From: Mycobacterium sp.
GTDB taxonomy: Bacteria; Actinomycetota; Actinomycetes; RYN-182
Reading direction: 5' to 3'
Assembly (NCBI GenBank): GCA_025965515.1
Contig: JAOPWU010000149.1
Coordinates: forward strand, 430-64,429
Length of the DNA stretch: 64,000 nucleotides
The notes below the pieces were generated by a model. It saw only the letters and a program-made list of their open reading frames with translations. It did not search any database and was not told where the DNA came from. This document shows positions 8,772-64,000 of this stretch, piece by piece (positions within the stretch are counted from its first letter, which is position 1; every line of letters starts with the position of its first letter). The position numbers and the translations under genes are program-made.

Positions 8772-9941
8772 ATGCACCGTACCCACAGCACGGCCCGAGT
8801 GATGGCCCTTGGGGTCCCGCTCGTGCTGGCGCTCTCGATGTCTGCCTGCGGGTCTGGCAGCAGCGCAACCAAGCAGGCCGGTCTACCGTCGGCGAATCCC
8901 AGTCTCAAGGGAACGATCACCCTCGGAGCCGTCCTGCCGATGACCGGCACCAATGCCACAATCGGGAAGGACCAGCAGCGCGGTATCGACCTCGCCGTCG
9001 CGAAGGTCAACGCTGCCGGTGGTGTGCTAGGGAAGAAGCTCGTCGTCCACACTGAGGACTCCCAGGGGCAGGCCGACTCGGCCATCCAAGCCGCGAAGAA
9101 GCTCGTGAGCGTGGACAAGGTGCCCGCCGTGATTGGTGAGTACTCGTCGGGCATCTCCATTCCGATGGAGCAGTACCTGCAAAGCCAAGGCGTCGTCGGG
9201 GTGAACCCCGGTAGCTCCTCCGTCCAGATGCGCAGTACCGGTTCGCTGCAGTTCTCCACCATCGGTCTCGATGATGTTGCCGGCGCGTTCAGCGCTAATG
9301 CACTGTGGCAGAAGGGCTACAAGTCGATCTCGATCCTGGCCCCAAACAACGCCTACGGGACAGGCATCGTCAGTTCGGTCTCTCAGGCGTTCACTAAGCT
9401 CGGCGGCAAGGTCAACGCCTCCGAGCTCTACACGGAGGGTCAGGCCGACTACCGCCAGGAGCTCGGGCGCCTGCAGAACTCCAAGGCTGACGCCACCGTC
9501 GTGACCACATACGGCAAGGACGGTGCCACGATCGACAAGGAGATCTACGAGCTGAACATGACGGCCAAGCCGGTCTTCGACATCTACCTGTCGGAGGACA
9601 TTCCCGACGCGGATCCCAAGGCTGTCGAGGGACGGGTCGGCATGGACGTCAACGCGATCTCCGCCCAGGGCAAGCCGTATGCCGACTACTACCAGAAGAC
9701 CTATGGCCAGAACTTCATCTCGTCCTTCAACGGTTACACCTACGACGCCGTGACGATGCTCGCCGCCGCGATCAACAAGGCAGATGCAACGGACTCAACG
9801 GCCATCTCGACGGCACTCGTCACGGTATCGCGCACCTATAACGGCGTCACCGGGCCAATCGATTTCGACGCCGATGGTCAGCGGTCCAGCCAGCCTTACG
9901 TCCTTGCCACCGTCAAGAACGGCCAGATCATCCCCCAGTAG
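8772..9941 (+). CDS. branched-chain amino acid ABC transporter substrate-binding lipoprotein (LivJ/LivK family)
   Basis: AAGGAG RBS 6 nt upstream; signal peptide plus lipobox (LALSMSACGSG); periplasmic binding protein type I fold; followed by livHMGF. Confidence 0.8.
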   Translation: MHRTHSTARVMALGVPLVLALSMSACGSGSSATKQAGLPSANPSLKGTITLGAVLPMTGTNATIGKDQQRGIDLAVAKVNAAGGVLGKKLVVHTEDSQGQADSAIQAAKKLVSVDKVPAVIGEYSSGISIPMEQYLQSQGVVGVNPGSSSVQMRSTGSLQFSTIGLDDVAGAFSANALWQKGYKSISILAPNNAYGTGIVSSVSQAFTKLGGKVNASELYTEGQADYRQELGRLQNSKADATVVTTYGKDGATIDKEIYELNMTAKPVFDIYLSEDIPDADPKAVEGRVGMDVNAISAQGKPYADYYQKTYGQNFISSFNGYTYDAVTMLAAAINKADATDSTAISTALVTVSRTYNGVTGPIDFDADGQRSSQPYVLATVKNGQIIPQ

Positions 9942-49325: not shown

Positions 49326-50753
49326 GTGCTGTCGGTGACGAGCCTCGGTGTCCTGCTCACCGGCGTGAACACGTCCTCGCTGGACGTGGCGCTGCCGAGC
49401 GTCGCCCGGCACTTCGACGCCTCACCGACCGCGGCCTCGTGGACGCTGCTGTCCTACATGCTCGTCATGACGATCCTGATCCTGGCGTTCGGCCGGCTGG
49501 CGGACATGGTCGGCCGGCGGCGGCTCTACCTGCTGGGGCTGGGCGTGCTGACGCTCGCCAGCCTCGGGTGCGCACTGAGCCCCACCGTCGGCTGGCTCAT
49601 CGGCTTCCGCGCGCTGCAGGCCGTCGGCGCGGCCGCCATCATCACCAACACGACGGCCCAGCTGACCGACGCGTTCCCCGCCCGGCTGCTCACGACGGGG
49701 CTCAGCCTGAACGTCGCGATCGCCGCGGCTGCGCAGGTGGTGGGCCCGGTCGTCGGCGGCATCACGGCCGGCGCGTGGGGCTGGCGCTGGGTCTTCGCCA
49801 TCAACGTGCCCATCGGCCTGGCCGGCCTCGCCTGGGCGTCGGTGACCCTGCGCCGGACGGCGGCCCCCCCACGCACCGAGCGGTTCGACCTGGGCGGTGC
49901 GCTGCTGTCGTTCGTGGTGCTGGGCGGCATCACGGTGGCGCTGTCGTTCGGTGGCGCCCACGGCTGGACGGATCCGCGGGTGCTGACGGCAGCGGCCGCC
50001 AGTCTGGTGTCCCTGCCGCTGTTCCTCCTCCTGCAGCGCCGCCGGCGTGACCCCCTGGTGGACCTGGCCCTGTTCGCCGATCGGGAGCGGGCGGCCGCCT
50101 ACCTCTCCACGTTCCTGCTGGCCATCGCCCGGTTCGCCGTGGTGCTGCTCGCAGCGCTCTTCCTGCAGGCGGTCCAGGGGCTCGACCCCGCCGGCGCGGG
50201 CGTGCGGGTGCTGCCCGTCGCCGCCGGGCTGTCGATCGCGAGCCCGGTCGCGGGCCGGCTCGCCGCTCGGTTCCCGGCCCGCACCGTCTCCTCCGCCGGG
50301 ATGCTCATCACCGCCGCCGGCCTGGCCGCGCTCGCCGTGCTGGTCAGCCCCCACGTGGGGTATCCGGCGCTCGCCGTGGCGCTGCTGGCGGTGGGCGTCG
50401 GCAGCGGCATCTTCATGACGCCGAACACCGCCTCCATCATGCGGAGCGTGCGGCCCGACCAGCGGGGCGTCGCGAACGGGGTGCGGTCGATGCTGCAGAA
50501 CACGGGCTATGCCGTGAGCACCGCGCTGTCGCTCGCACTGGTCACCCGGCCGCTGTCGCCGGACCAGCAGCGCGCGGCCTACGCGGGGACGCTGGCGCGA
50601 CTGCCGGGCGGCGACCTCGCCGCCTTCATCGGCGGCTACCGCGTCGCGTTCATCGTGCTGCTGAGTCTCTGCCTCGTCGGCGCGGTGGCCAGCCTGGCCC
50701 GGGGGAGTTCTCCCCCGCTGAGCCACCCCGAGCGTGCCGCTGACCTGGGATGA
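49326..50753 (+). CDS. MFS transporter (DHA-type, 12-14 TMS)
   Basis: GTG at residue 221 of ORF 48666..50753 (start uncertain); FGRLADMVGRRRLY motif A; multiple TM helices. Confidence 0.7.
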   Translation: MLSVTSLGVLLTGVNTSSLDVALPSVARHFDASPTAASWTLLSYMLVMTILILAFGRLADMVGRRRLYLLGLGVLTLASLGCALSPTVGWLIGFRALQAVGAAAIITNTTAQLTDAFPARLLTTGLSLNVAIAAAAQVVGPVVGGITAGAWGWRWVFAINVPIGLAGLAWASVTLRRTAAPPRTERFDLGGALLSFVVLGGITVALSFGGAHGWTDPRVLTAAAASLVSLPLFLLLQRRRRDPLVDLALFADRERAAAYLSTFLLAIARFAVVLLAALFLQAVQGLDPAGAGVRVLPVAAGLSIASPVAGRLAARFPARTVSSAGMLITAAGLAALAVLVSPHVGYPALAVALLAVGVGSGIFMTPNTASIMRSVRPDQRGVANGVRSMLQNTGYAVSTALSLALVTRPLSPDQQRAAYAGTLARLPGGDLAAFIGGYRVAFIVLLSLCLVGAVASLARGSSPPLSHPERAADLG

Positions 50754-53529
50754 CCGCACTGACTACCCTGGAGCCGTGAAGGCTCGCACCGAGCGGGAGC
50801 GCCAACGCGAGACGATCGCCGAGGCGCTCACCGACGCGGGCCGGGTGCTGGCCGAGACGGAGCGGTTGCGGGTGGCCGGGGCGCCGCTGCTGGGGACCAG
50901 CGCGGCGCAGTCCCACGCCGACCGCCGGGAGCGCCTGGCGGACCGGCTCACCCGGCTGACGGCCGAGCGCGACCAGGCGGACCGCGACCTCGCGGCCCAG
51001 CAGGCCATCCTCGAGCTGGTGCTGGACAGGCTCCTGCCCTCCCCGTACGCCTCGGTGGCCTGGAACGACCCCCACTGGGAGGAGTGGCAGCCGCCCGAGG
51101 ACCTGCCGGACGCCGTCCGCCTCGGCACCCTGCGGCTGGACACGGCGAGCGGCGCGGTCCCCACGGTCGCCGTCTGCCCGGTCCTCGAGCACCCCACCGT
51201 GATCCTGGCGGAGGAGACGGGGTCCCTGGAGGCCGCCACCACGGCGCTGCAGGTGCTGACGGCCCGGCTCATCGCGTCCTGCCCGCCGGGGACGCTGCGG
51301 GTGTCCCTCGCCGACCTCGCCGCGTTCGGGTCGCGGCTCGGGGCCGTCGGCGGCACCGCCGCGCCGCTGCGGGTGGGGCCCACGGCGACCTCGCCGGTCC
51401 AGCTGCGCGCGATGCTGGATGAGATCGGGACGCACATGGTGCGGCTCAACACGTCCGGGGCGCTCGCGGCGGGCCCCTTGACGGACCAGGTGCGCCAGCA
51501 CCTGCCGGGCCACGAACCGCTGCGGCTCGTCGTCGCCGCCGGGCTGCCCGCCGACCTGCCGACCGACCTGTGGCGGCAGCTGGGGGCCATCGCCCGCAAC
51601 GGGCCCGCCTGCGGCGTCCACCTCGTCGTCCTGCCGGAGGTGTACGCCCGGGAGGACCGCGACAAGCTGCTGACGTTGCTCGGGGAGCACGCCGTGGTGC
51701 TGCGGGCCGCGGACGGGGAGCTGCGGCTGTCGACCTACGACGACACGCTGGGCTCGATCACCCCGTACCGGCTGTTCTCCGACGCCGCTCCGGGCCCGGT
51801 GCAGCGGGCGCTGCTCGCCGAGTCGCTGCCGCGGGCGAGCGTCGGCACGCTGCAGGCCCCCGCGCTGCTCGACATGCTCACCGACGCCCCGGAGCGCAGC
51901 TCGCGCGACGGCCTGGCGATCCCCGCGGGGCTCACCGCGGACGGCGAGATCTGGTCGCTGTTCGTCAACGACGCGGCGCCGCACGGCCTGCTCGCCGGTC
52001 AGAGCGGCTCGGGCAAGAGCACGCTGCTGCACGGCCTGGTGCAGAGCGCCAGCACGCTGTACGCCCCCGACGAGTTGCAGCTCGTGATGCTCGACCTCAA
52101 GCAGGGCGTGGAGTTCGCGGAGTACCTGCAGGACGCCACGACTCCCGAGCTGCCGCACATCCGGCTGCTCGGCATCGATGTGGATGCGTACCAGGCGCTC
52201 GAGGTGCTGCGCTGGCTCGTCGCGGAGAACAGCCGCCGGCAGCGGCTGTTCCTCGCCGCCGGCGAGCGCAGCTCCACGGCCGTCCGCAACATCTACGAGT
52301 ACCGGCGCCTCACCGGGGAGCCGCTGCCGCGGCTGCTCGCCGTCATCGACGAGTTCCAGCAGCTCTTCGCCCCCGACGTCTCCGAGGAGGCGTGGACGCA
52401 CCTGCAGACCATCGCGAAGCTGGGGCGCAGCCAGGGCATGCACCTGCTGCTCGCCACGCAGGGGCTCACGGGCATGGCGGGTGGCATCCGGGAACGCGAG
52501 CCCGTGTTCGCGCAGCTGGCGACGCGCATGGCCCTGCGGTGCCGGCCCGCGGACGCCGTCGAGGTGCTGGGGCCCGGCCGGTCCGGCTCGGTGGCCGAGC
52601 TGCGGCGGCAGGGCGAGATGATCGTGGCCGCCGCCGGCGGCGCGATGAGCGAGGACCAGCGGGTCCGGGTTGCGTTCATGGACCCGCAACAGCGGCGCCG
52701 GCTGCGCACCGAGCGGGCGCTCGCGCTGCCGCCCGCCCCGCCGGTCGACACCGTGCGGGTGATCCGCGGCGACCAGCGCGTCCAGCTCTCCGGGATGCGG
52801 GTGCTCGGGGCGGTCGGTCCCGAGGCCGTGCCGCTCGGCATGACGTGCGTGCTGCGGGAACCCGTGGCGCGGGTGGACCTGCGCCCCCGCCGGGGCCGCG
52901 GGGTCGCGCTGGTGGCGCGCTCGGCGCCGCTCGCCACGGCCGCGCTGGCGACGCCGGCCGCCGTGCTGGCCGCGGGTGACGACGGCCGGCCCGTCGTGAT
53001 CGTCGACGAGGACGGCCGGCACCTGGCGGAGCTGGAGGGGCTCCTGGAGTGGCTGGGCCCCCGCGGCCGGGTGCTGGACGACCTGCCGGCCGACGCGGCG
53101 GGCGCGGCCGCGCTGGCGGCGGCGCTGCCCGAGCCGTCGATCGTGATCCTCCTCGACGTCCGGCACCCGGATCAGTTCGGGCCCGGCACGCTGGCGGAGC
53201 TGGCGAGCGGCAAGGAGGGGCACACGGTCCTCACGTGGCTGCGGCCCGAGGCCTGGCACCAGTGCGCACGGGTGCTGCGCGACATGCAGGTCCGGCTCGG
53301 CCGCGACATGCCCGTGACCGAGCTCTCCGCGACCCTCGGCGCGCGGCCGCCGCACCCCGCGCCCGACGGCTACCTGTGGTGGACGGACCTCGGCTCCGGC
53401 CGGCCGCCGCGGCTCGTGCGGCCGGCCGTCGCGCCGACCGCCGGGTCGCTCGAGGCCGACCTCGGTATCGCCGGGGGCCGTCGGGTCATCTCGCTCGACC
53501 CCGCGTCCCCGCGCCCGGTGGCGCCCTGA
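50734..53529 (+). CDS. FtsK/SpoIIIE family P-loop ATPase (EccC/EssC-like), no predicted TM segment; one intact and flanking degenerate FtsK-like domains
   Basis: Walker A GQSGSGKSTLLHGLV; Walker B LLAVIDEFQQL; HLLLATQ; upstream region (VLEHPTVILAEETGS...HLVVLPE) looks like a degenerate FtsK domain; start at GTG 50734 or GTG 50776. Confidence 0.8.
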   Translation: MPLTWDDRTDYPGAVKARTERERQRETIAEALTDAGRVLAETERLRVAGAPLLGTSAAQSHADRRERLADRLTRLTAERDQADRDLAAQQAILELVLDRLLPSPYASVAWNDPHWEEWQPPEDLPDAVRLGTLRLDTASGAVPTVAVCPVLEHPTVILAEETGSLEAATTALQVLTARLIASCPPGTLRVSLADLAAFGSRLGAVGGTAAPLRVGPTATSPVQLRAMLDEIGTHMVRLNTSGALAAGPLTDQVRQHLPGHEPLRLVVAAGLPADLPTDLWRQLGAIARNGPACGVHLVVLPEVYAREDRDKLLTLLGEHAVVLRAADGELRLSTYDDTLGSITPYRLFSDAAPGPVQRALLAESLPRASVGTLQAPALLDMLTDAPERSSRDGLAIPAGLTADGEIWSLFVNDAAPHGLLAGQSGSGKSTLLHGLVQSASTLYAPDELQLVMLDLKQGVEFAEYLQDATTPELPHIRLLGIDVDAYQALEVLRWLVAENSRRQRLFLAAGERSSTAVRNIYEYRRLTGEPLPRLLAVIDEFQQLFAPDVSEEAWTHLQTIAKLGRSQGMHLLLATQGLTGMAGGIREREPVFAQLATRMALRCRPADAVEVLGPGRSGSVAELRRQGEMIVAAAGGAMSEDQRVRVAFMDPQQRRRLRTERALALPPAPPVDTVRVIRGDQRVQLSGMRVLGAVGPEAVPLGMTCVLREPVARVDLRPRRGRGVALVARSAPLATAALATPAAVLAAGDDGRPVVIVDEDGRHLAELEGLLEWLGPRGRVLDDLPADAAGAAALAAALPEPSIVILLDVRHPDQFGPGTLAELASGKEGHTVLTWLRPEAWHQCARVLRDMQVRLGRDMPVTELSATLGARPPHPAPDGYLWWTDLGSGRPPRLVRPAVAPTAGSLEADLGIAGGRRVISLDPASPRPVAP

Positions 53530-54625: not shown

Positions 54626-55609
54626 ATGGACTCTCGCATCCTCGGTACCCGTTCCCCCCTGACCGTCTCCGCCATCGGCCTAGGCTGCATGGGCATGTCG
54701 GAGTTCTACGGCGCCGGCTCGGATGCCGAGTCGACGGCGGTGCTGCAGCTCGCGGTCGAGCTGGGCGTCACGTTCTTCGACACCGCGGACATGTACGGCC
54801 CGTTCCGCAACGAGGAGCTCGTCGGCGCGGCCCTGCGGCCCTACCGCGACAAGGTCGTGATCGCGACGAAGTTCGGCAACCAGCGCGGCGAGGACGGCAG
54901 CTTCCTGGGCGTCAACGGCCGCCCGGAGTACGTGCACAGCGCGTGCGACGCGTCGCTGCGGCGGCTCGGCATCGACACCATCGACCTGTACTACCAGCAC
55001 CGCGTCGACCCGACCGTGCCCATCGAGGACACCGTCGGCGCCATGGCGGAGCTCGTGGCGGCGGGCAAGGTGCGCCACCTCGGCCTGTCCGAGGCGGCCC
55101 CCGAGACCATCCGCCGGGCCGCCGCCGTCCACCCGATCACCGCGCTGCAGACGGAGTACAGCCTGTGGTCGCGCGACCCGGAGGACGAGCTGCTCGCTAC
55201 CGTGCGGGAGCTCGGCATCGGCTTCGTGGCCTACAGCCCCATCGGCCGCGGGTTCCTCTCCGGCGAGATCCGCAGCATCGACGACCTGGCGCCGGACGAC
55301 TTCCGCCGCCGGAACCCCCGGTTCACCGGCGAGAACTTCCAGCGCAACCTCGACCTCGTGGACACCGTCCGGCGGCTCGCGGAGGCCAAGGGGTGCACCC
55401 CCGCGCAGCTCGCGCTGGCCTGGCTGCTGGCGCAGGGCGACGACATCGTGCCCATCCCCGGCACGAAGCGGGAGAAGTACCTGCGGGAGAACGTCGCCGC
55501 CGCGGACATCACCCTCACCCCGGAGGAGCTGGCGGCCATCGACGCCGCCGCACCGCGCGGTGCCGCCGCGGGCGACCGGTACCCGGACATGAGCGGCGTC
55601 GGGCGCTAG
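54626..55609 (+). CDS. aldo/keto reductase
   Basis: 327 aa; [13 protein letters not shown]; [18 protein letters not shown]; HLGLSEA; typical AKR. Confidence 0.9.
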
Positions 55610-57123
55610 TCCGCGGGGCGGTACACCGCCAACCGTGAGGGGGCGACGTGCAGTCGCAGGTCGCGGGGCGCGTCGCCGATCTCGCCGTCGCGGGCGAGCC
55701 GCGGGTGCCCGTTGCTCTCCTCGAGGACGAGGTCGAGCGACCCTCGCAGCCGCTGCTCGTACACCCGTGACCGGCCGAGCCGGCCGGTCAGGACGGCGAG
55801 CGCCAGGCGCGTGCGGGCGAGGCGCACGTCGGCGCGCACCAGCCGGACGTCGATGACGTCGTCGTCGAGCCGCGGCCGCCAGGACGGGGCGAAGCCGGCC
55901 GGCCGGTAGGGGCCGTTGCCGGCGAACAGCAGCCACAGCAACCGCGGCTCGCCGTCGAGCCGCACCGCGATGGGGTGGCCGTGCCGCAGCACGCCCGGCA
56001 GCGCCGCGGCGAGGGCGGGCCACTTGCCGAGCCGGTCCTCGCGCCGTTCCCGCCCCGCCACCAGCTCGGGGTAGACCCCGACGCTGAGCGTGTTCAGGAA
56101 GACCAGCTCCTGCTCCGGGTCGACGGCGTCGTCGGCGGCGCGGCCGACGGTGCAGGCGGCGGCGGTGCCCTCCCGCACCGCCCGCGCCACGTCCTCGACG
56201 CCGGTGATGCAGAGTTCGGCGGCGAAGTGGTTGAGGGTTCCGGCGGGCACGACCACCAGCGGCAGCCCCGCCCGCAGCGCGACCGCCGCCGCTGCGTTCA
56301 CGCTGCCGTCGCCGCCCGCGATGCCCAGGACGCGCGCCTCCCGGGCCGCCTCGCGCAGGGCCGGCCGCAGGTCGCCCTCGACCAGCCGGGCCTCCGCCTT
56401 CGGCAGCTCGGCGAGCAGCGCGTCGACCATCGCCCGGGCACTGCCGTCACCGCTGTCGGCGTTGCCGACGACGATCAGCCCCTCGCCGTCGGGGAGCGCC
56501 GGGACGGTCGCCCGCGCCGCCGCGGCCCGTTCGCCGTGCGGCCGCGCCGGCCACCGCGACCGCACGAAGAGGGCGCAGCCGACCCCGAGCGCCAGACCCG
56601 CCGCGACGTCACCCGGGTAGTGGACGCCGACGTGGACGCGGCCGTAGGCGACGCCCGCCACGACCGGTGCGAGCGCCAGGCCCAGCGCCGGCCGCTCCAG
56701 CGCGACGCCGAGGGTGAAGGCCGCGGCCGACGCGGCGTGCCCGCTGGGGAAGCTGGACGAGGAGGGCACCCGGCGGAGCTGCCGGAGCTGCGGCACCCCG
56801 GCCACGCCCGGCCGGTCGCGGCGGGCCGTGAGCTTCCCGGGCAGGTTGGCCGCGAAGCTCGCGACGCCGAGGCTGACCAGGCCCCGCGTCGCGGCGCGGC
56901 GCTGCCCCGCGGCGGCGAGCGCAGCGGCGGTCACGGCCCAGAGCCCCGCGTGGTTCGCGCTGGTGGTGAGCGGCGGCAGGACGGCGTCGAACAGCGGGCT
57001 CTCGCGCCGGGCCGCGGCGGCGAACAGGGTCCGGTCCGTCCGGTCCAGCCGGTCGACGAGCCGCCGGGCGGGGGAACGGCGGTGGGGGACGAGGGGCGCG
57101 AGGGGCCGGCGGCGAGCGATCAC
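55606..57123 (-). CDS. bifunctional PAP2 phosphatase / diacylglycerol kinase catalytic-domain fusion protein
   Basis: N-terminal PAP2 motifs ([20 protein letters not shown]); C-terminal DAGK_cat (IAGGDGSVN). Confidence 0.8.
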
Positions 57124-57471
57124 CGCCGGGAGCTACCCGAGCGGGCGGTGGCCGAGACCCGCCGTGCGGGTGACGCAGCGTGCCGCCCCGGACGTGATGG
57201 TGGCGTGCGCCGATGCAGGCGGGACGGCGGCCATGCCCGCGGGCCGCCGGACCGGTTTCGCCGCGCGGTCGCTTCCACGGTTGATGGACCCGGCGCGACG
57301 GACCCGTCATCCGTGGAGTTGCACTGCCACCGCATGACCGAAGACGGGCGGGGCGCGGCTTGCCAGGCTCGTCGCAGCTCCCTTGGAGGAGCTATCGCAC
57401 CGAGCAACACGCACCGCTCACGCCGGGTGGCGATCCGCCACCCCGGTCATCAACCCAGGAAGGAGACACGC

Positions 57472-57945: not shown

Positions 57946-59208
57946 GTGGACGATCTCGCCGCTTCGGCGGTCCGCTTCATCACGGATCCGCACTCGCAAC
58001 AGGTGGGTGACCTGACCATGTTCGCCCGACTGGCCGTGGAGAAGCCGGTGCTGAAGGCCGGCCCGGTGTGGATCGTGTCCCGGCACGACCTGGTCTGCGC
58101 CCTGGCTCGGCACCCGGCCTGTGTCGTCCGTCTTCCGGACCGCTGGCGCCACGCCCCACCACTGAACCCGTCCGTCTCCCGGCTCCTCGAGGGACTCCTC
58201 CCTGTCCTGCCGACCCCCGATCACCGTCGGCTCCGACGCCTGCTCGCCGGGCAGTTCAGCGCGCGGTCCGTAGAACGGCTGCGGGGGGCGGTCGTGCGCA
58301 TCGTCACCGAACTGCTCGCAGGACCGCTGCGCCGAGGCTCGTGCGATTTCGTGAAGGACGTCTGTCTACCCCTGCCCGTCTACACGACCGCGGCCCTGCT
58401 CGGATTGCCGGACGCGGACCGAGGCCAGCTGCTGGCCTGGGCCCAGGCGGTCAACGGCATGGTCCTCGCCGAAGTGACCGGCCGCGTCGGCGGAGCTGGC
58501 GGGGGGCCTCGGAATCCGGGCGTGGACCGCCTCGGCGAACTGGTGGCGTACATCGAGGAACTCGTACGGCGCAGGACCGCGGACCCGGGCGACGACCTGA
58601 TCTCCCGGTTGGCGGCGGAAACAGCCACCGAGGACGGGCACCTTGACCACGACGAGTTGGTCTCCACGGTGCTGCTGCTGTTGATGACGGGTATCGATAC
58701 GGTCGGTAGCGGCTTGGCCAACGTGGTGACCGTGCTGGGGCGCAACAGAGAGGCCTGGGCCCTGGTCGTGGCGGACCCGTCGCGAGCAGGCGCGGCATAC
58801 CAGGAAGCGCTGCGGCTCCTCCCGCCGCTGCCCGTCATGAGCCGCATCACCGAGGCGGATGTCGAGGTCGCCGGACTCACCATCCCCGCTGCCAGCACCG
58901 TGCTGTTGGTCTACGGCGCGGCCAACCTGGACCCCCGAGTCTTCCCGGAGCCCTGCAGTTTCGACCTCGCCCGGCTGCCGACCGGTCAGCTTGCCTTCGG
59001 GCACGGTCCGCACCACTGTCTGGGTGCGAGCCTGGCAGTGCTCCAGGGGGAGGTGGTGCTCGCGGCGCTGGCCCGCTCGGCCCCGTGGTTCCACGTGGGA
59101 GCCGGTCCACGCCGCCGCCGCGACGAACTGGCGTTCCACTCGCCCGCCGAGCTGCCGTTGTGGCTGCGGGCCGAGCCTCCCGGATGCCGTCGACAGGTGT
59201 CCGCATGA
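57946..59208 (+). CDS. cytochrome P450
   Basis: 420 aa; heme-binding FGHGPHHCLGASLA; ExxR (EALR); GTG start with GGGAGG RBS. Confidence 0.85.
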   Translation: MDDLAASAVRFITDPHSQQVGDLTMFARLAVEKPVLKAGPVWIVSRHDLVCALARHPACVVRLPDRWRHAPPLNPSVSRLLEGLLPVLPTPDHRRLRRLLAGQFSARSVERLRGAVVRIVTELLAGPLRRGSCDFVKDVCLPLPVYTTAALLGLPDADRGQLLAWAQAVNGMVLAEVTGRVGGAGGGPRNPGVDRLGELVAYIEELVRRRTADPGDDLISRLAAETATEDGHLDHDELVSTVLLLLMTGIDTVGSGLANVVTVLGRNREAWALVVADPSRAGAAYQEALRLLPPLPVMSRITEADVEVAGLTIPAASTVLLVYGAANLDPRVFPEPCSFDLARLPTGQLAFGHGPHHCLGASLAVLQGEVVLAALARSAPWFHVGAGPRRRRDELAFHSPAELPLWLRAEPPGCRRQVSA

Positions 59209-62200
59209 GGCTGCCTGCGGCGGTGCCGTCGCGAGCAGGCACGGCGACGCCGATCGTCCGTCAGGTCGAGGACGCCGACTGCGGGCCCACCTGCCTCAGC
59301 ATCCTCCTGGCACACCACGGCATCCACGTCCCGTCCGCCACGGTGCGCGCACAGTGTGGGGCGTCCCGCGACGGGTCGACCGCGGCGGACCTTACGCGCG
59401 TGGGCCGGCTCCACGGGGTGGAGATCCGTGGCATCCGTCTGACGGGGGTCGCCGCGGGGCGCGATGACAGCCTCGCAGCAGTGCTGTCGACGGTGCGACG
59501 GCTGCCACTGCCCGCGATCGCGCTGCTCGGCGATAGCCACTTCGTCGTCCTGGAAGCCGTCCGACGGGGCGACCGGGTAGAGCTCAACGATCCCGCCCGT
59601 GGTCGCACCGCCCTCTCGGGACCAGATTTTGTGGCCGCGTTCAGCGGTGTCCTGCTCACGGCCACGGCCACGGCCGCCACCGCCACCGGACTGCAGGGCC
59701 ACACCCCGAGGCGCCACCAGGGCGAGTGGGTGCGCGTCTGCGCGGGCTGGCTCGCGCCCGTGCGCGGTCCGGTCGTGCTGTCGGCCGGTATGGCGTTGGG
59801 CGTGGGCTGCTGTGCAGCGGGCTGCCTCGCCGTCCTGCAGCAGGTCGCCCGCGCGCGGACCGACGGACGCAGCGGCACCGCGGCTGTCGTGCCTGCAGCC
59901 GCTTTGCTGCTCACCCTGCTCGCCGCGTCGCTCGGGTACGCACGACGGCGCCTTGTCACCAGCAGCACCGCGCGCCTGGCTGCTGGGCGCTCGCGGGAGC
60001 TGCTCGACCGGCTGCTGCTGCTGCCGGCCTCCTTCACGGATCGACGCTCCGCGGCGACCCTGCTGGTGCAGGTCCGCTTTGCCGGAACGGCGGGGACCCT
60101 GCTCGCCCTCAAGGTTGCAGCGCTGGTTGGCGCGGTGGCGTTCCTGGTGCCCGTGGTGGTTCTGGTCGGGGTCGTGGCACCGACCCTGCTGGTCGTGGCG
60201 GGGGTGGGGGGCGGTGCCGCGTGGTTGCTTCGGCGCACGGGGGACCGCCGGACGGCGGCCCCGTCGCGGCTCGTCGCGGGAGACCTCGCCCGGCGCTCCG
60301 CGACGGCACGCGTGGCGCTCGCCCGGGGGATCACCCTGCACGCGGACGGATCGGCGGACGACCTGCGCGCCGAGTTGGCCGAGGAGGGCCGACGCGATGT
60401 CCGCACCCGCCGCGAGCTGGCAGTGGGACAGGGTCCGTGGCGGGCGGCCGCTGCGGCGGTGGAGGTCGTCACGCTCGCCGCAGCGGGGTCCCAGGTCGTG
60501 GCCGGGGAGGCCCCCACGATCGGCTTGATCCTGGCCGTCCCGCTGCTGCTGGTGCACGTCCGCGAGGTGGGCGGCCTGCTAGGGGAATTGCCGGACTTCA
60601 CCGCCCGGCTGGAGGTGCTGGACGACATATGCGGCGCCGAGCCCGAGCCGCAGCCCGGCCGGGGACCCGGCGCACCGGACGACGGCAGGCTGCGCGGACG
60701 GGTCGAGCTGCTCGGTCTCACATTCGGATACAGCTCCCGCCGCACCCTGGTCGGCCCGGTCAGCAGCCGCATCGAACCGGGTCGTCGTGCGGTCGTTGTG
60801 GCGCCTCCCGGCGGCGGCGGCTCGACCCTCGTACGGCTGCTGCTCGGGGCCTTGCGGCCGACGGCAGGAGCGGTATTGCTGGACGGCGTCCCGGTGCACG
60901 AGGTCCCCCGGGCTGTGCTGCGACGTTCGGTCGGTTACGTCGCGCAACGGCCCGCGTTCTTCCCGGCGACGGTGCACGAGAACGTCACCATGTTCGACAC
61001 CTCGGTCCGACCGGAGCAGGTACAGGCGACATTGCGGGCGGTCGGCCTCGCGGACGTCGTCGATCGTCGCGGTGGCGCGCTCGTGGCCCGGGTCGCGCCC
61101 GGCGCAGCCAACTTCTCGGAAGGGGAGCGTCGGCTCCTCGCCCTGGCGCGCGCGCTGGTGCGGGACCCCTCCCTCCTGCTGCTGGACGAGCCGGTCGGCA
61201 CGTCCGACGGGGCCCTGGCCCGACGGATCGACGGACTGCTGCGTTCCCGCCGGGTCACCACCGTCCTTGTGACCCGGCGACCCGACCTCATCGGGCCGGA
61301 TGACACCGCCCTTGTCCTGCGCGACGGGCGGTTCGTCCCGTCCGCGGACCGCGGGCCCGGCTGGGACGGCGTGCCCAGCGCCCCGTCACGAGCGCTGCAC
61401 GGTGAGCCCGGCGGACGGCCGTCGATCGCCGCGCCCGAGGTGCCCGAGGTGGTCGGCGGCGACCCCGTTCCTGGCGTGGCGGCGGGGGCAGCGGCGTCGT
61501 GGGAAGGGTGTCGCCGCCGCGTGGCAGCTCGCGGCGCCGTCGCCCTTGCCATGACGGGCGTCGTCGGCGCCCTGGTCTGTGCCCTGCCGGTGGCTGCCGC
61601 CGAGACGGCCCGCACTGCCGGACCCGCCGTGCTCGCGGTGGTCGCCGGGGCAGCCATCGCCCTGACGGGCTTACTCCGGGTCCGCGGGTCCGCGGCCGAG
61701 GCGATTGAGGCGGCGCTGCAGCAGGTCGTGGAGCCGGCGATCTGGGCGCGGCTGCTGGCCCCGCGTGCGCGCCGGTGGCTCCTGTCGGCGCCGGACGCGC
61801 TGGTCCGCACCGGTAGCTGCATCTCCCGCTTGCGGTCGCTGACTGCCCCGGCCGCACTGGACGCGGCGGACGGCGCGGCGGTCCTGCTGATCGCCGTCCT
61901 GGCGTTGGTGGCGACGCATCAGGACGCTGGTCTCGCTGGGGCGACCGTGGTGGTCCTGCTCGTGGGGGCATCGGTGGTCGTCGCCGCCCGGGCCCCGTCC
62001 CTCCCAGACGGGGCGGATGCGGCCGAAGCCCTGCTCCGGGCCGTGCCCGGCGGGCTCGACGAGATCCACCTCGGGATCGCCGAGGAGGCGGTCGCGGCTC
62101 GCGTCACCGGCCCGGTGTGCGCTGGGACAGCAGCGCGGGGGACGTCCGCGGCCCACAGCGAAGCCCTGCTGGGCGCATTCGCGGCGTCGCTCTTCCCGGC

Positions 62201-63221
62201 GCTCGTGACAGCTGTTGCCGCTGCGGTGTGGTGGCGGTCGACACCGGCTTCCGGTCTCCTCACCGGATGCCTGCTGCTGGCGCCGGTCCTATTGGTGGTG
62301 GCCCGGTGTGACGCCGTGGTGCGATCCGTCGGCATCGTCGGCCGTGGTCTGGTGCGTGAGGCCCGCGACGTGGTCGCGTCCGCAGCGCCGCCCACCGCCC
62401 CGGCGATGGCTGTGTCGGGCCCGCAGGCCCGTCGGGTCGGCGGGGCGCCGGGGACGGCCGTCGACCTCTGCGGCGTCTCGCTGCGCTACGCGACCCCCGG
62501 ACTGGCTGCGCCAGGGCTCCCCGCCGTGGCTGAGGTGACGCTGACGGTGGCCCCCGGCGAGTTCGTCGTGCTGGTGGGCGCGTCGGGGGCAGGTGCCTCC
62601 TCCCTCCTCCGGCTCCTGGCAGGTCTGGAGGAACCGGACAGCGGGATCGTGCTGCACGACGGGACGCCGCTTACCGCGCCGGGCGTTTCTTCGGTCCGCC
62701 CCGGCACCGCCCTGCTCGTGCAGGACGCCGACGTGCCACGGGGAACCGTCCGATCGGTGCTCCTCGGCCACGGCGGCTCGGCGGCACCTCAGGACGCAGT
62801 TGCCTGGGCGCTGCTGCGTGCGGTCGGTCTCGAGGACGAGATCCGGGGACTGCCCATGGGTCTGGCGACCGTGGTCCCCAGCGGGTCAGGGGGTTTCGCC
62901 GCCGGACAGCTGCGGCGGTTGGCACTGGCCCGGGCGCTGCGACGTGGCACGCGACTGCTGCTGCTGGACCAGCCGGTCGCGCCCGCCGATCCGGACATCG
63001 GCCGGCTGGCCACCGTGCTGCGCGACCGGCGGGGCACGACGCGCGTCGTCGCCACGGCGGCCCCCGAGCTCGCGTGGGCCGCTGATCGGGTCGTGGTGCT
63101 GTCCGGGGGGAGGGTCGCCCAGGAGGGACGCCCGGATCACCTCCTGCGGACCGGAGGTCCCTGCGGCCGGCTGTTCCCGGATGACCTGTGCCTCACCCGC
63201 CCGCGTTTCCGACAGACCTGA
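59205..63221 (+). CDS. C39 peptidase-domain fused double ABC transporter (two TMD-NBD halves), both NBDs with degenerate Walker A/H-loop
   Basis: ATGA overlap with P450 stop; N-terminal C39 (EDADCGPTCLSILLAHHG); two ABC signature/Walker B regions (FSEGERRLLALARAL + LLLLDEPVG; GGFAAGQLRRLALARAL + LLLLDQPVA); Walker A positions read APPGGGGSTL and GASGAGASSL with no Lys. Confidence 0.8.
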   Translation: MRLPAAVPSRAGTATPIVRQVEDADCGPTCLSILLAHHGIHVPSATVRAQCGASRDGSTAADLTRVGRLHGVEIRGIRLTGVAAGRDDSLAAVLSTVRRLPLPAIALLGDSHFVVLEAVRRGDRVELNDPARGRTALSGPDFVAAFSGVLLTATATAATATGLQGHTPRRHQGEWVRVCAGWLAPVRGPVVLSAGMALGVGCCAAGCLAVLQQVARARTDGRSGTAAVVPAAALLLTLLAASLGYARRRLVTSSTARLAAGRSRELLDRLLLLPASFTDRRSAATLLVQVRFAGTAGTLLALKVAALVGAVAFLVPVVVLVGVVAPTLLVVAGVGGGAAWLLRRTGDRRTAAPSRLVAGDLARRSATARVALARGITLHADGSADDLRAELAEEGRRDVRTRRELAVGQGPWRAAAAAVEVVTLAAAGSQVVAGEAPTIGLILAVPLLLVHVREVGGLLGELPDFTARLEVLDDICGAEPEPQPGRGPGAPDDGRLRGRVELLGLTFGYSSRRTLVGPVSSRIEPGRRAVVVAPPGGGGSTLVRLLLGALRPTAGAVLLDGVPVHEVPRAVLRRSVGYVAQRPAFFPATVHENVTMFDTSVRPEQVQATLRAVGLADVVDRRGGALVARVAPGAANFSEGERRLLALARALVRDPSLLLLDEPVGTSDGALARRIDGLLRSRRVTTVLVTRRPDLIGPDDTALVLRDGRFVPSADRGPGWDGVPSAPSRALHGEPGGRPSIAAPEVPEVVGGDPVPGVAAGAAASWEGCRRRVAARGAVALAMTGVVGALVCALPVAAAETARTAGPAVLAVVAGAAIALTGLLRVRGSAAEAIEAALQQVVEPAIWARLLAPRARRWLLSAPDALVRTGSCISRLRSLTAPAALDAADGAAVLLIAVLALVATHQDAGLAGATVVVLLVGASVVVAARAPSLPDGADAAEALLRAVPGGLDEIHLGIAEEAVAARVTGPVCAGTAARGTSAAHSEALLGAFAASLFPALVTAVAAAVWWRSTPASGLLTGCLLLAPVLLVVARCDAVVRSVGIVGRGLVREARDVVASAAPPTAPAMAVSGPQARRVGGAPGTAVDLCGVSLRYATPGLAAPGLPAVAEVTLTVAPGEFVVLVGASGAGASSLLRLLAGLEEPDSGIVLHDGTPLTAPGVSSVRPGTALLVQDADVPRGTVRSVLLGHGGSAAPQDAVAWALLRAVGLEDEIRGLPMGLATVVPSGSGGFAAGQLRRLALARALRRGTRLLLLDQPVAPADPDIGRLATVLRDRRGTTRVVATAAPELAWAADRVVVLSGGRVAQEGRPDHLLRTGGPCGRLFPDDLCLTRPRFRQT

Positions 63222-63230
63222 GAGGGACCC

Positions 63231-64000
63231 ATGGGCAAAGTCGTTCGCTTCAAGCGCAGCTCTCGCGCAGACGTCGTGGCCGGCGACGGCGTGTACCTGA
63301 CGTCCGAGCGGTCGGGCCAGTACCGGCTGCAGGGTCGCCTCGTCGAGCGGCTGGCGCCGCTGCTCGACGGCGCCCGCAGCCGGGCGGAGGTCGCCGCGGC
63401 CCTGGCCGCCGAGTACCCGGCGGCCCGCGTCGATGCGGTCCTGGACACGCTCGTCGAGGCGGGGCACGTCGTGGACGTTGCGGCCGAGGTAGACCACCGT
63501 GCGGCTGGCTTCTGGGAGATGCACGGCCTGGGCGGCGACGCGGCGCTGAGTGCGGTGGGGGTCGGCTCAGTGGAGTTGGTCCGGCTGGGGGACGTGGACA
63601 CCGTTGGCTTTCGGGAGGCCGCGCAGGAGGCCGGTCTGAGTGTGCGTGGCGCCACCGGTGATCCTGCCGCGCTGACGGTCGTCCTCGTGGACGACTACCT
63701 CAACCCCGAATTGCAAGCCTTCAACGAGCGGGCGCTCGGCGCGGGCCGTGCCTGGCTCCTCGCGAAGCCGATCGGCGGGATGGTCTGGGCGGGCCCGGTC
63801 TTCGAGCCTGGCCGCACCGCGTGCTGGTTCTGCCTGGCTGCACGGCTGAGCTCCAACCAGATGGTCATGACCTACCTGAAGCAGCGGAACGGGTTGGCCT
63901 CGCCGCCGGTCACCGCCCTGGCCGATCTGCCCGCGACGCGAGCGATCGGCGCCCGGCTCGCGGCGTTGCAGGCCGCGTCGTGGTTCGCCGGTGCGCTGGA
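63231..64000 (+). CDS. TOMM-type cyclodehydratase docking/scaffold (E1-like, leader-peptide-binding) protein, 5' portion (truncated by window end)
   Basis: GAGAGGG RBS; N-terminus DGVYLTSERSGQYRLQGRLVERLAPLLDGARSRAEVAAALA matches the remembered TIGR03882 bacteriocin cyclodehydratase domain start (...vfLlserg..vlrGrly..l.plLDGtrt..ei...l). Confidence 0.6.
   Translation, partial: MGKVVRFKRSSRADVVAGDGVYLTSERSGQYRLQGRLVERLAPLLDGARSRAEVAAALAAEYPAARVDAVLDTLVEAGHVVDVAAEVDHRAAGFWEMHGLGGDAALSAVGVGSVELVRLGDVDTVGFREAAQEAGLSVRGATGDPAALTVVLVDDYLNPELQAFNERALGAGRAWLLAKPIGGMVWAGPVFEPGRTACWFCLAARLSSNQMVMTYLKQRNGLASPPVTALADLPATRAIGARLAALQAASWFAGAL

Follow-up and report, generated by a model that had tools for sequence, protein, structure and literature searches.

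We analyzed a 64,000-nucleotide stretch of DNA (hereafter the window) from a metagenome-assembled genome (MAG) labeled Mycobacterium sp. and found that it encodes, near its end, a fused peptidase-containing ATP-binding cassette (ABC) transporter (PCAT) in which neither of the two nucleotide-binding domains (NBDs) retains a canonical ATP site. Alignments identify the protein as a single-chain, heterodimer-derived PCAT; its N-terminal C39 peptidase domain keeps all catalytic residues, and precursor peptides with double-glycine-type leaders are encoded upstream of it. We lean towards the view that it is a pseudo-ATPase PCAT, acting as a membrane-anchored leader peptidase and scaffold with NBDs of structural function, the product being exported by an ABC-2 transporter of the same gene cluster or leaving by a slow and passive route.

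The + strand is open without interruption from 59085 to 63221. The initial annotation, though its coordinates began at 59205, gave the protein 1378 aa, a length that counts from an upstream GTG at 59085. The true start is almost certainly the ATG at 59205, which overlaps the TGA stop (59206–59208) of the upstream cytochrome P450 gene as ATGA and is also used by independent gene calls on three other assemblies; the length is therefore 1338 aa. The architecture proposed initially, i.e., a C39 peptidase and two ABC halves in one chain, holds under profile and orthologue alignment. Pfam recognizes Peptidase_C39 (1.2e-23) and two ABC_tran domains (4.3e-46): the N-terminal peptidase typical of PCATs reaches 83.8 bits against a cut-off of 22 (PF03412), and the NBD fold 157 bits over two stretches (PF00005), the NBDs being 30–35% identical to those of ABCB1, Ste6, and BSEP. 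The transmembrane domain (TMD) profile PF00664 scores 16.5 bits, under its cut-off of 28, and a full-length phmmer alignment pairs residues 57–754 with residues 15–705 of PCAT1, spanning the TMD. AlphaFold2 models place about six long helices in each half, but their predicted local distance difference test (pLDDT) scores are near 50 (means of 53 and 51.5 for the two halves, from shallow alignments of 5 and 8 sequences), too poor for fold-level statements or P-loop geometry. The best NCBIfam matches are NHLM_micro_ABC1 (TIGR03796) for residues 55–751 (5.3e-126; 421.6 against a cut-off of 853.3) and NHLM_micro_ABC2 (TIGR03797) for residues 849–1359 (4.9e-78; 263.3 against 709.4), both in the 1378-aa numbering. 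Both scores lie below half of the curated equivalog cut-off, which places the halves outside these families by score, and the second match begins at profile position 178, the N-terminal ~170 residues of the ABC2 profile being absent.

The register of the ATP-site motifs was set by HMMER alignments to the solved structures of ABCB1, Ste6, plant ABCB1, and BSEP and by alignments with orthologues, which are 42–44% identical and have matching flanking residues; profile alignment revealed neither a Lys nor a His that had been put in the wrong register. At the position of the Walker A Lys, NBD1 has Gly539 and NBD2 has Ala1131, and both codons (GGC, 60819–60821, and GCC, 62595–62597) are three nucleotide changes away from AAG and hence are not single-base errors. 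The readings made by eye in the initial annotation, namely no Walker A Lys in either NBD, Arg and Ala at the H-loop positions, and DQ instead of DE in the second Walker B, were borne out, and with them the claim that canonical catalytic residues are missing from both nucleotide-binding sites. The ABC signatures, described there as recognizable, are present in both halves but are non-canonical (FSEGE and FAAGQ versus LSGGQ). Written as Walker A/Walker B/H-loop, the first site thus reads G/DE/R with FAAGQ and the second A/DQ/A with FSEGE, so that the hydrolytic site expected of PCATs is missing. Both NBDs still contain the Q-loop Gln, the A-loop Tyr (FGYSS, LRYAT), the Walker B Asp, and the P-loop glycines and Ser/Thr; in the inspected alignment no compensating basic residue was found in or beside either P-loop relative to the orthologues. 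The protein, credited at first with essentially one Lys, has exactly one, located in TMD1. We also observed that the Gly539 codon lies inside a perfect (GGC)4 run (60810–60821) and that this P-loop has lost two residues by deletion in one orthologue (P0042); the loss of this Lys may have involved triplet slippage and not point mutation alone. The coordinates of all features are collected in Table 1.

Table 1. Features of the transporter gene and of the adjoining cluster genes in the window
Feature	Position	Strand	Remarks
Precursor peptide A1, 54 aa	57472..57636	+	Leader end ...LSIEELDDVAAA; Ser/Thr/Cys-rich core DCAGTASTASTPVSTAACIGCASF
Precursor peptide A2, 54 aa	57679..57843	+	Leader ...LAIEELTELSG; core AASASTAGTVSTPATVGTAACLSCF
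Cytochrome P450, 420 aa	57946..59208	+	Stop overlaps transporter start (ATGA)
Fused PCAT	59205..63221	+	1338 aa; order C39 - TMD1 - NBD1 - linker - TMD2 - NBD2
C39 peptidase domain	59250..59669	+	Gln20, Cys26, His112, Asp129 (1338-aa numbering); all catalytic residues present
NBD1 Walker A, APPGGGGST	60801..60827	+	Gly539 at Lys position; aligned with G-x-S-G-x-G-K-S-T
NBD1 signature, FSEGE	61113..61127	+	FSGGE in orthologues; completes second ATP site
NBD1 Walker B, LLLLDEP	61173..61193	+	Glu kept
NBD1 H-loop region, VLVTRRPD	61263..61286	+	Arg at His position
Pro/Gly/Ala-rich linker, ~62 aa	61335..61520	+	Joins the halves; stop/start overlap instead in orthologues; AlphaFold2 pLDDT <32
NBD2 Walker A, GASGAGASS	62577..62603	+	Ala1131 at Lys position; aligned with GASGCGKST
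NBD2 signature, FAAGQ	62895..62909	+	Completes first site; degenerate clade-wide
NBD2 Walker B, LLLLDQP	62955..62975	+	Gln in place of catalytic Glu
NBD2 H-loop region, VVATAAPE	63045..63068	+	Ala at His position; VVVTHSP in orthologues
YcaO cyclodehydratase, N-terminal part	63231..64000	+	Cut by window end

An artefact, i.e., a sequencing or assembly error, mis-registered motifs, or a side effect of Lys-poor, high-GC composition, could be suspected, given that the source sequences are metagenome-assembled and that the protein family is generally poor in Lys. We consider this exceedingly improbable and, in effect, refuted. The exact protein is deposited as MCW2745427.1, and three more copies, each 99% identical, were present in a second MAG, in a metagenome from JGI, and in a Logan assembly; all four independent assemblies share identical motif residues and an intact frame, while a polymorphism of the Logan strain (A533G) restores the first Gly of the NBD1 Walker A. 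Over the 4 kb, each codon position keeps a steady GC content (GC1 ~0.81, GC2 ~0.59, GC3 ~0.85), which speaks against a hidden frameshift. Neither a frameshift nor a sequencing error, which the initial annotation had kept in view, was found, and both are discarded on the strength of this uniformity, the four concordant assemblies, and the change of all three nucleotides in both Lys codons. The register rests on solved structures as well as on orthologues, and orthologues just as poor in Lys keep precisely the Walker A Lys. For the part of the cluster beyond the window, which stops inside the YcaO gene, we used a near-identical (99%) MAG contig, L083; the ABC-2 ATPase found there, 8 kb downstream in the same cluster, is canonical (GTNGAGKTT, LSGGE, LDEP, TTH). 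Since the assemblies agree and this neighboring ATPase is intact, the motif losses are not due to assembly or composition.

Relatives were sought by an exhaustive HMMER search over 1.84 billion representatives and by word-index protein searches, which returned none between 99% and ~44% identity. The nearest ones are split ABC1/ABC2 genes residing in the same type of cluster, i.e., in loci L001 (an Amycolatopsis MAG), L080, L081, and L086. In L001, L081, and L086 the gene order is as in the window, except that ABC1 and ABC2 are separate genes; in place of the two subunit genes of the NHLM pair, the window lineage has a single in-frame open reading frame in all four assemblies. No close orthologue has the H-loop His in ABC1 (A, R, D, N, R, and R stand in its place), the Walker A Lys position of ABC1 reads K, S, R, K, A, and A, and the ABC2 signature that completes the first site is always non-canonical (FxxSQ or FAAGQ). 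The window protein therefore shows the degenerate site of asymmetric heterodimeric exporters (ABC1 Walker A/B and H-loop, ABC2 signature), and the first site is degenerate throughout the clade, as in many heterodimeric exporters (PMC7756269).

The second site presents a different picture. The Walker A Lys of ABC2 is kept in all 13 orthologues, the Walker B Glu in 8 of the 13 (Asp in the others), and the H-loop His in 7 of the 13 (Arg or Tyr in the others). In the notation used above, ABC1 and ABC2 read K/DE/A and K/DE/H in the L001 pair, R/DE/D and K/DE/H in the L081 pair, and A/DE/R and K/DD/Y in the L086 pair, compared with G/DE/R and A/DQ/A in the two halves of the window protein. The one canonical site of asymmetric exporters is thus missing here, with K, E, and H replaced by A, Q, and A, respectively, in NBD2 and G replaced by E in the signature of NBD1. 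Within the close P450-linked clade, only the window lineage is fused and only this lineage is without the ABC2 Lys; fused NHLM-type relatives at ~30% identity exist, and those inspected have canonical motifs. To the question of the initial annotation of whether orthologues share the degeneracy, the answer is accordingly divided: they do so at the first site, clade-wide, but the loss of the second site and the fusion belong to this lineage only. Judging from these alignments, the unusual part is the second-site loss together with the fusion, first-site degeneracy being ordinary for heterodimeric exporters, and the window protein stands at the end of a trend within its clade.

The single Lys, in turn, is not a special trait as such and was rejected as one, for orthologous halves carry 1–5 Lys each; the informative fact is which Lys they keep. 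In P0062 (L081, 12067–13860; 597 aa) and in P0199 of Streptacidiphilus jiangxiensis (668 aa) the sole Lys is the Walker A Lys, from which we conclude that this residue is under strong selection. A seemingly weakened consensus site with the Walker A Lys retained (Walker B Asp-Asp; H-loop Arg or Tyr) was seen in L086 (736–4481), P0080, P0082, P0197, P0198, and P0201, and the ABC1 partner in L086 is Lys-less. The clade as a whole seems prone to losing ATPase residues.

As for the peptidase, the closest solved relative of the C39 domain is LahT150 (6mpz, 2.1e-16); the oxyanion Gln and the catalytic Cys, His, and Asp of the domain match the corresponding positions in LahT and in PCAT1 (C21, H99, and the DP motif of the latter). 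Precursors A1 and A2 lie 1.4–1.7 kb upstream of the transporter gene, so that double-glycine-type substrates are encoded nearby as is characteristic of PCATs. Both peptides are short, with leaders of ~30 aa that fit LxxEELxxVxGG-type motifs. A1 is identical in L083 and L079, and its orthologues in L080, L081, and L001 have GG or AA at the leader-end position; the A2 orthologue in L001 reads EVGG followed by AASAST. PCAT1 binds and cleaves its substrate while ATP-free and inward-facing, and once ATP is bound the protease is disengaged and inhibited (PMC6959990); a PCAT unable to close its NBDs is hence expected to stay protease-competent.

According to the reading that we prefer, the ancestors would have been two genes, an ABC1 with the C39 domain and an already degenerate site and an ABC2 with the consensus hydrolytic site, which became fused in this lineage. 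In the consensus site, Ala would then have replaced the Walker A Lys, Gln the Walker B Glu, Ala the H-loop His, and Glu the Gly of the partner signature; in the degenerate site, the Walker A Lys would have given way to Gly as well. ATP would no longer be hydrolyzed and would probably be poorly bound; owing to this proposed loss of hydrolysis, the protein would stay inward-facing and protease-competent. It would thus serve as a membrane-anchored leader peptidase that cuts the double-glycine-type leaders of the two modified precursors, with the NBDs persisting as structural pseudo-enzyme domains, and the mature peptide would most likely be exported by the downstream canonical ABC-2 transporter, or slowly through the PCAT cavity. 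A scaffold or protease role had been suggested in the initial annotation and is favored by the intact C39 residues, by the double-glycine-type leaders, and by the fact that the cluster encodes another, canonical ABC exporter; we infer it, as we do the loss of ATPase activity and the choice of the protein that exports the product.

The protein could instead be a decaying relic, i.e., a PCAT made dispensable by the ABC-2 transporter or by another protease or exporter and drifting towards a pseudogene, with its protease function lost too. For the P450, YcaO, and LanB parts, the window lineage, L081, and L001 are about equidistant, and the PCAT domains of the window lineage fall 4–9 identity points below the pair L081–L001, both apparently ATP-competent lineages: 52–53% versus 62% for C39, 47–50% versus 54.5% for NBD1, and 51–53% versus 58% for NBD2. 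Such divergence, which includes C39, would suit a relic, as would the finding that 30 of the 37 coding substitutions between near-identical strains, together with a 9-nt indel, fall in the transporter gene. Moreover, DNA of 73% GC keeps long frames open by chance (many spurious open reading frames of 500 aa occur), and a ratio of nonsynonymous to synonymous polymorphism (pN/pS) of 0.45 is not low. Yet four assemblies show the 4-kb frame unbroken, the one indel between strains preserves the reading frame, all C39 catalytic residues are kept, and the gene is still coupled to the P450 gene by ATGA. The 99%-identical strains give a pN/pS of 0.44–0.47 (16 nonsynonymous and 15 synonymous changes), significantly below neutrality (p = 0.02–0.03) and not different from the 0.28 of the flanking biosynthetic genes (Fisher p = 1.0). 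Both Lys codons being three changes from AAG, the loss is old and not recent noise, and still the NBDs are ~50% identical to those of orthologues; the divergence appears to be a modest acceleration of the whole protein and not a free decay of the NBDs.

In the same strains (compared with L079 2643–6668 and L083 6321–10346) the synonymous divergence of the transporter gene is ~5-fold that of the flanking P450, YcaO, ThcOx, and LanB genes (1.2% versus 0.23%) and the nonsynonymous divergence ~8-fold (0.54% versus 0.07%), with similar pN/pS. The gene may owe this to a recombination patch or to a strain-mixture consensus; as synonymous sites share the excess, recombination or mutation is indicated rather than relaxed constraint. 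The selection data and the three-step codon changes favor a retained protein over a fresh pseudogene, and we regard the relic as an unlikely explanation.

Several points nevertheless weigh against a pseudo-ATPase leader peptidase. Power is low in the selection tests, for which strains of 99% identity supplied ~30 substitutions, and the extra PCAT divergence is also compatible with general relaxation. Orthologous clusters whose consensus site apparently works carry an ABC-2 transporter too, so its presence alone is no proof of divided labor; a role as an immunity pump is conceivable. In other ABC proteins, weak ATP binding can survive a Lys-to-Ala mutation in Walker A, and Lys-less P-loops may permit nucleotide-dependent gating. 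Another rival is a non-hydrolytic, nucleotide-responsive conduit: the Lys-less P-loops would bind ATP at the concentrations found in cells, and reversible NBD closure or thermal alternation would gate a passive path whose direction comes from irreversible leader cleavage and an outward concentration gradient, a CFTR-style use of the scaffold without active pumping. It would fit the continued conservation of the NBDs and the presence, in both of them, of the nucleotide-contacting elements named above, from the Q-loop Gln to the P-loop glycines and Ser/Thr; the E-to-Q change of NBD2 is, besides, the same as experimenters use for trapping ATP-bound dimers (engineered structures of this kind are among the matches). 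The ABC2 halves P0045, P0080, P0082, P0197, P0198, and P0201, with Walker B Asp, H-loop Arg or Tyr, and the Lys kept, suggest in addition that the clade tolerates very slow or absent hydrolysis. However, both Walker A lysines, the residues most directly needed for phosphate binding, are lost, both signatures are non-canonical, and a review of degenerate sites (PMC7756269) describes no ABC protein with such a combination; the conduit, too, therefore seems to us a doubtful candidate. That an ABC exporter scaffold should move or release a modified peptide entirely without ATP hydrolysis, with C39 cleavage and the gradient giving direction and nucleotide acting only as a gate, we consider quite improbable. 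On that view the P450/YcaO-associated PCAT clade in its entirety could be sliding from a pump to a protease-coupled facilitator, with the fused protein as the end point, since the Walker B Glu and the H-loop His are gone from several of the orthologous second halves too.

The order of genes in L083 is P450, fused transporter, YcaO, ThcOx/nitroreductase, an 847-aa LanB-N-like protein, Lant_dehydr_C, ABC-2 ATPase, permease, and histidine kinase, and the P450 gene occupies the same position in L001, L080, L081, and L086. By its gene content the cluster is of the goadsporin-like azole/dehydroalanine peptide type, extended by a P450 and a PCAT. The goadsporin-type features, i.e., YcaO, an azoline dehydrogenase, and a split LanB-type dehydratase beside Ser/Thr/Cys-rich precursors, are present in L083, L081, and L086, and no second Lant_dehydr_C-like (pyridine synthase) gene was found in these three clusters. 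Literature searches on this cluster type returned general genome-mining papers only. A related arrangement was noticed in L084 (8332–12118; GCA_035946955.1), where the series YcaO, ThcOx, and LanB has an ABC2-type half (P0080) immediately upstream, before which no ABC1 with a C39 domain was called; a candidate precursor, MVNDIEDLAIENLGETVGANTASTGG..., is located at 9332–9475.

Directly upstream of the precursors in the window, and divergent from them, a PAP2 phosphatase fused to a diacylglycerol-kinase catalytic domain is encoded at 55606–57132 (-). It adjoins the cluster in L083 too, and was not seen in L081 or L086. Farther upstream, 4 kb from the cluster, a 935-aa FtsK/SpoIIIE-family ATPase is encoded (50722–53529), possibly the sign of a mobile or conjugative element. 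The GC content of the window steps from 63–68% in positions 1–21000 to 72–78% in 21000–64000. Among the genes of the low-GC part are those for branched-chain keto-acid dehydrogenase E1/E2/E3, for a permease and binding protein of the Liv type, for an acyl-CoA dehydrogenase, and for an APH-type kinase. Acquisition as an island would be one explanation for the high-GC part, a chimeric contig another; the MAG is labeled Mycobacterium sp.

The window protein shares with PCAT1 of Clostridium thermocellum (4RY2, 4S0F), ComA, LagD, and CvaB the N-terminal C39 domain (Cys/His/Asp), the C-terminal NBD, and, between them, what is putatively an exporter-type TMD, and with PCAT1-type transporters the double-glycine-type leader substrates encoded nearby. 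PCAT1, however, is a homodimer with two canonical ATP sites, whereas the window protein is one chain of unlike halves with one C39 domain and no canonical site. The activity proposed here is that of the isolated domain of LahT, a lanthipeptide AMS transporter (ABC transporter for maturation and secretion), which is an ATP-independent leader peptidase; but LahT150 was engineered as a piece of a transporter whose NBDs are normal, while in our case the full body is kept and the ATP sites have, by sequence, been lost naturally. The NHLP-family bacteriocin exporters NHLM_micro_ABC1/ABC2 likewise form a two-subunit PCAT with C39 on the first subunit only, occur in YcaO-type clusters for peptides that the ribosome makes and that are modified after translation (RiPPs), and correspond to the halves of the window protein in the same order. 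The window protein descends from such two-subunit PCATs and would work in a similar way. In the typical members P0002 and P0004, and in the two halves of P0003, the motifs are canonical (GxxGxGKST, AHRLS), in contrast to the fused protein with its lost motifs. A further trait of the family is its association with long-leader precursors of the NHLP or Nif11 type; the precursors of the window are short (54 aa). HlyB, of type 1 secretion, possesses a C39-like domain without the Cys and combines a dead protease with a live ATPase. Exporters of its type are also C39–ABC fusions in which one catalytic module has turned into a structural one without catalysis, and the window protein is their mirror image, with a live-looking protease and dead ATPase sites.

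With TM287/288, TmrAB, TAP1/2, and the ABCC family the protein has in common a degenerate first site, yet those exporters keep one canonical hydrolytic site, which is lost here. ABC exporters with one degenerate site are common, and the remaining canonical site is held to power the cycle (PMC7756269). Replacement of the Walker A Lys in the degenerate site is also on record, by Cys in Pdr5 and by Arg in ABCG5/G8, in both cases with one canonical site remaining (PMC7756269). Our literature searches brought up no described PCAT with two degenerate sites.

The finding so far concerns one uncultured lineage known from sequence; it would surprise ABC specialists and is directly testable. If true, an exporter-type ABC protein that has lost both sites and has nevertheless been kept intact would challenge the view that a canonical site powers the cycle (PMC7756269), and it would be an example of the way in which an ATPase made redundant by a second exporter can become a pseudo-enzyme. 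Genome-mining pipelines label such a gene as the exporter of its cluster; if it is a leader peptidase only, heterologous production would need the ABC-2 genes as well. For the PCAT family, the protein would, if our reading is true, be a natural experiment on an ABC scaffold without a motor, one that separates leader cleavage from transport.

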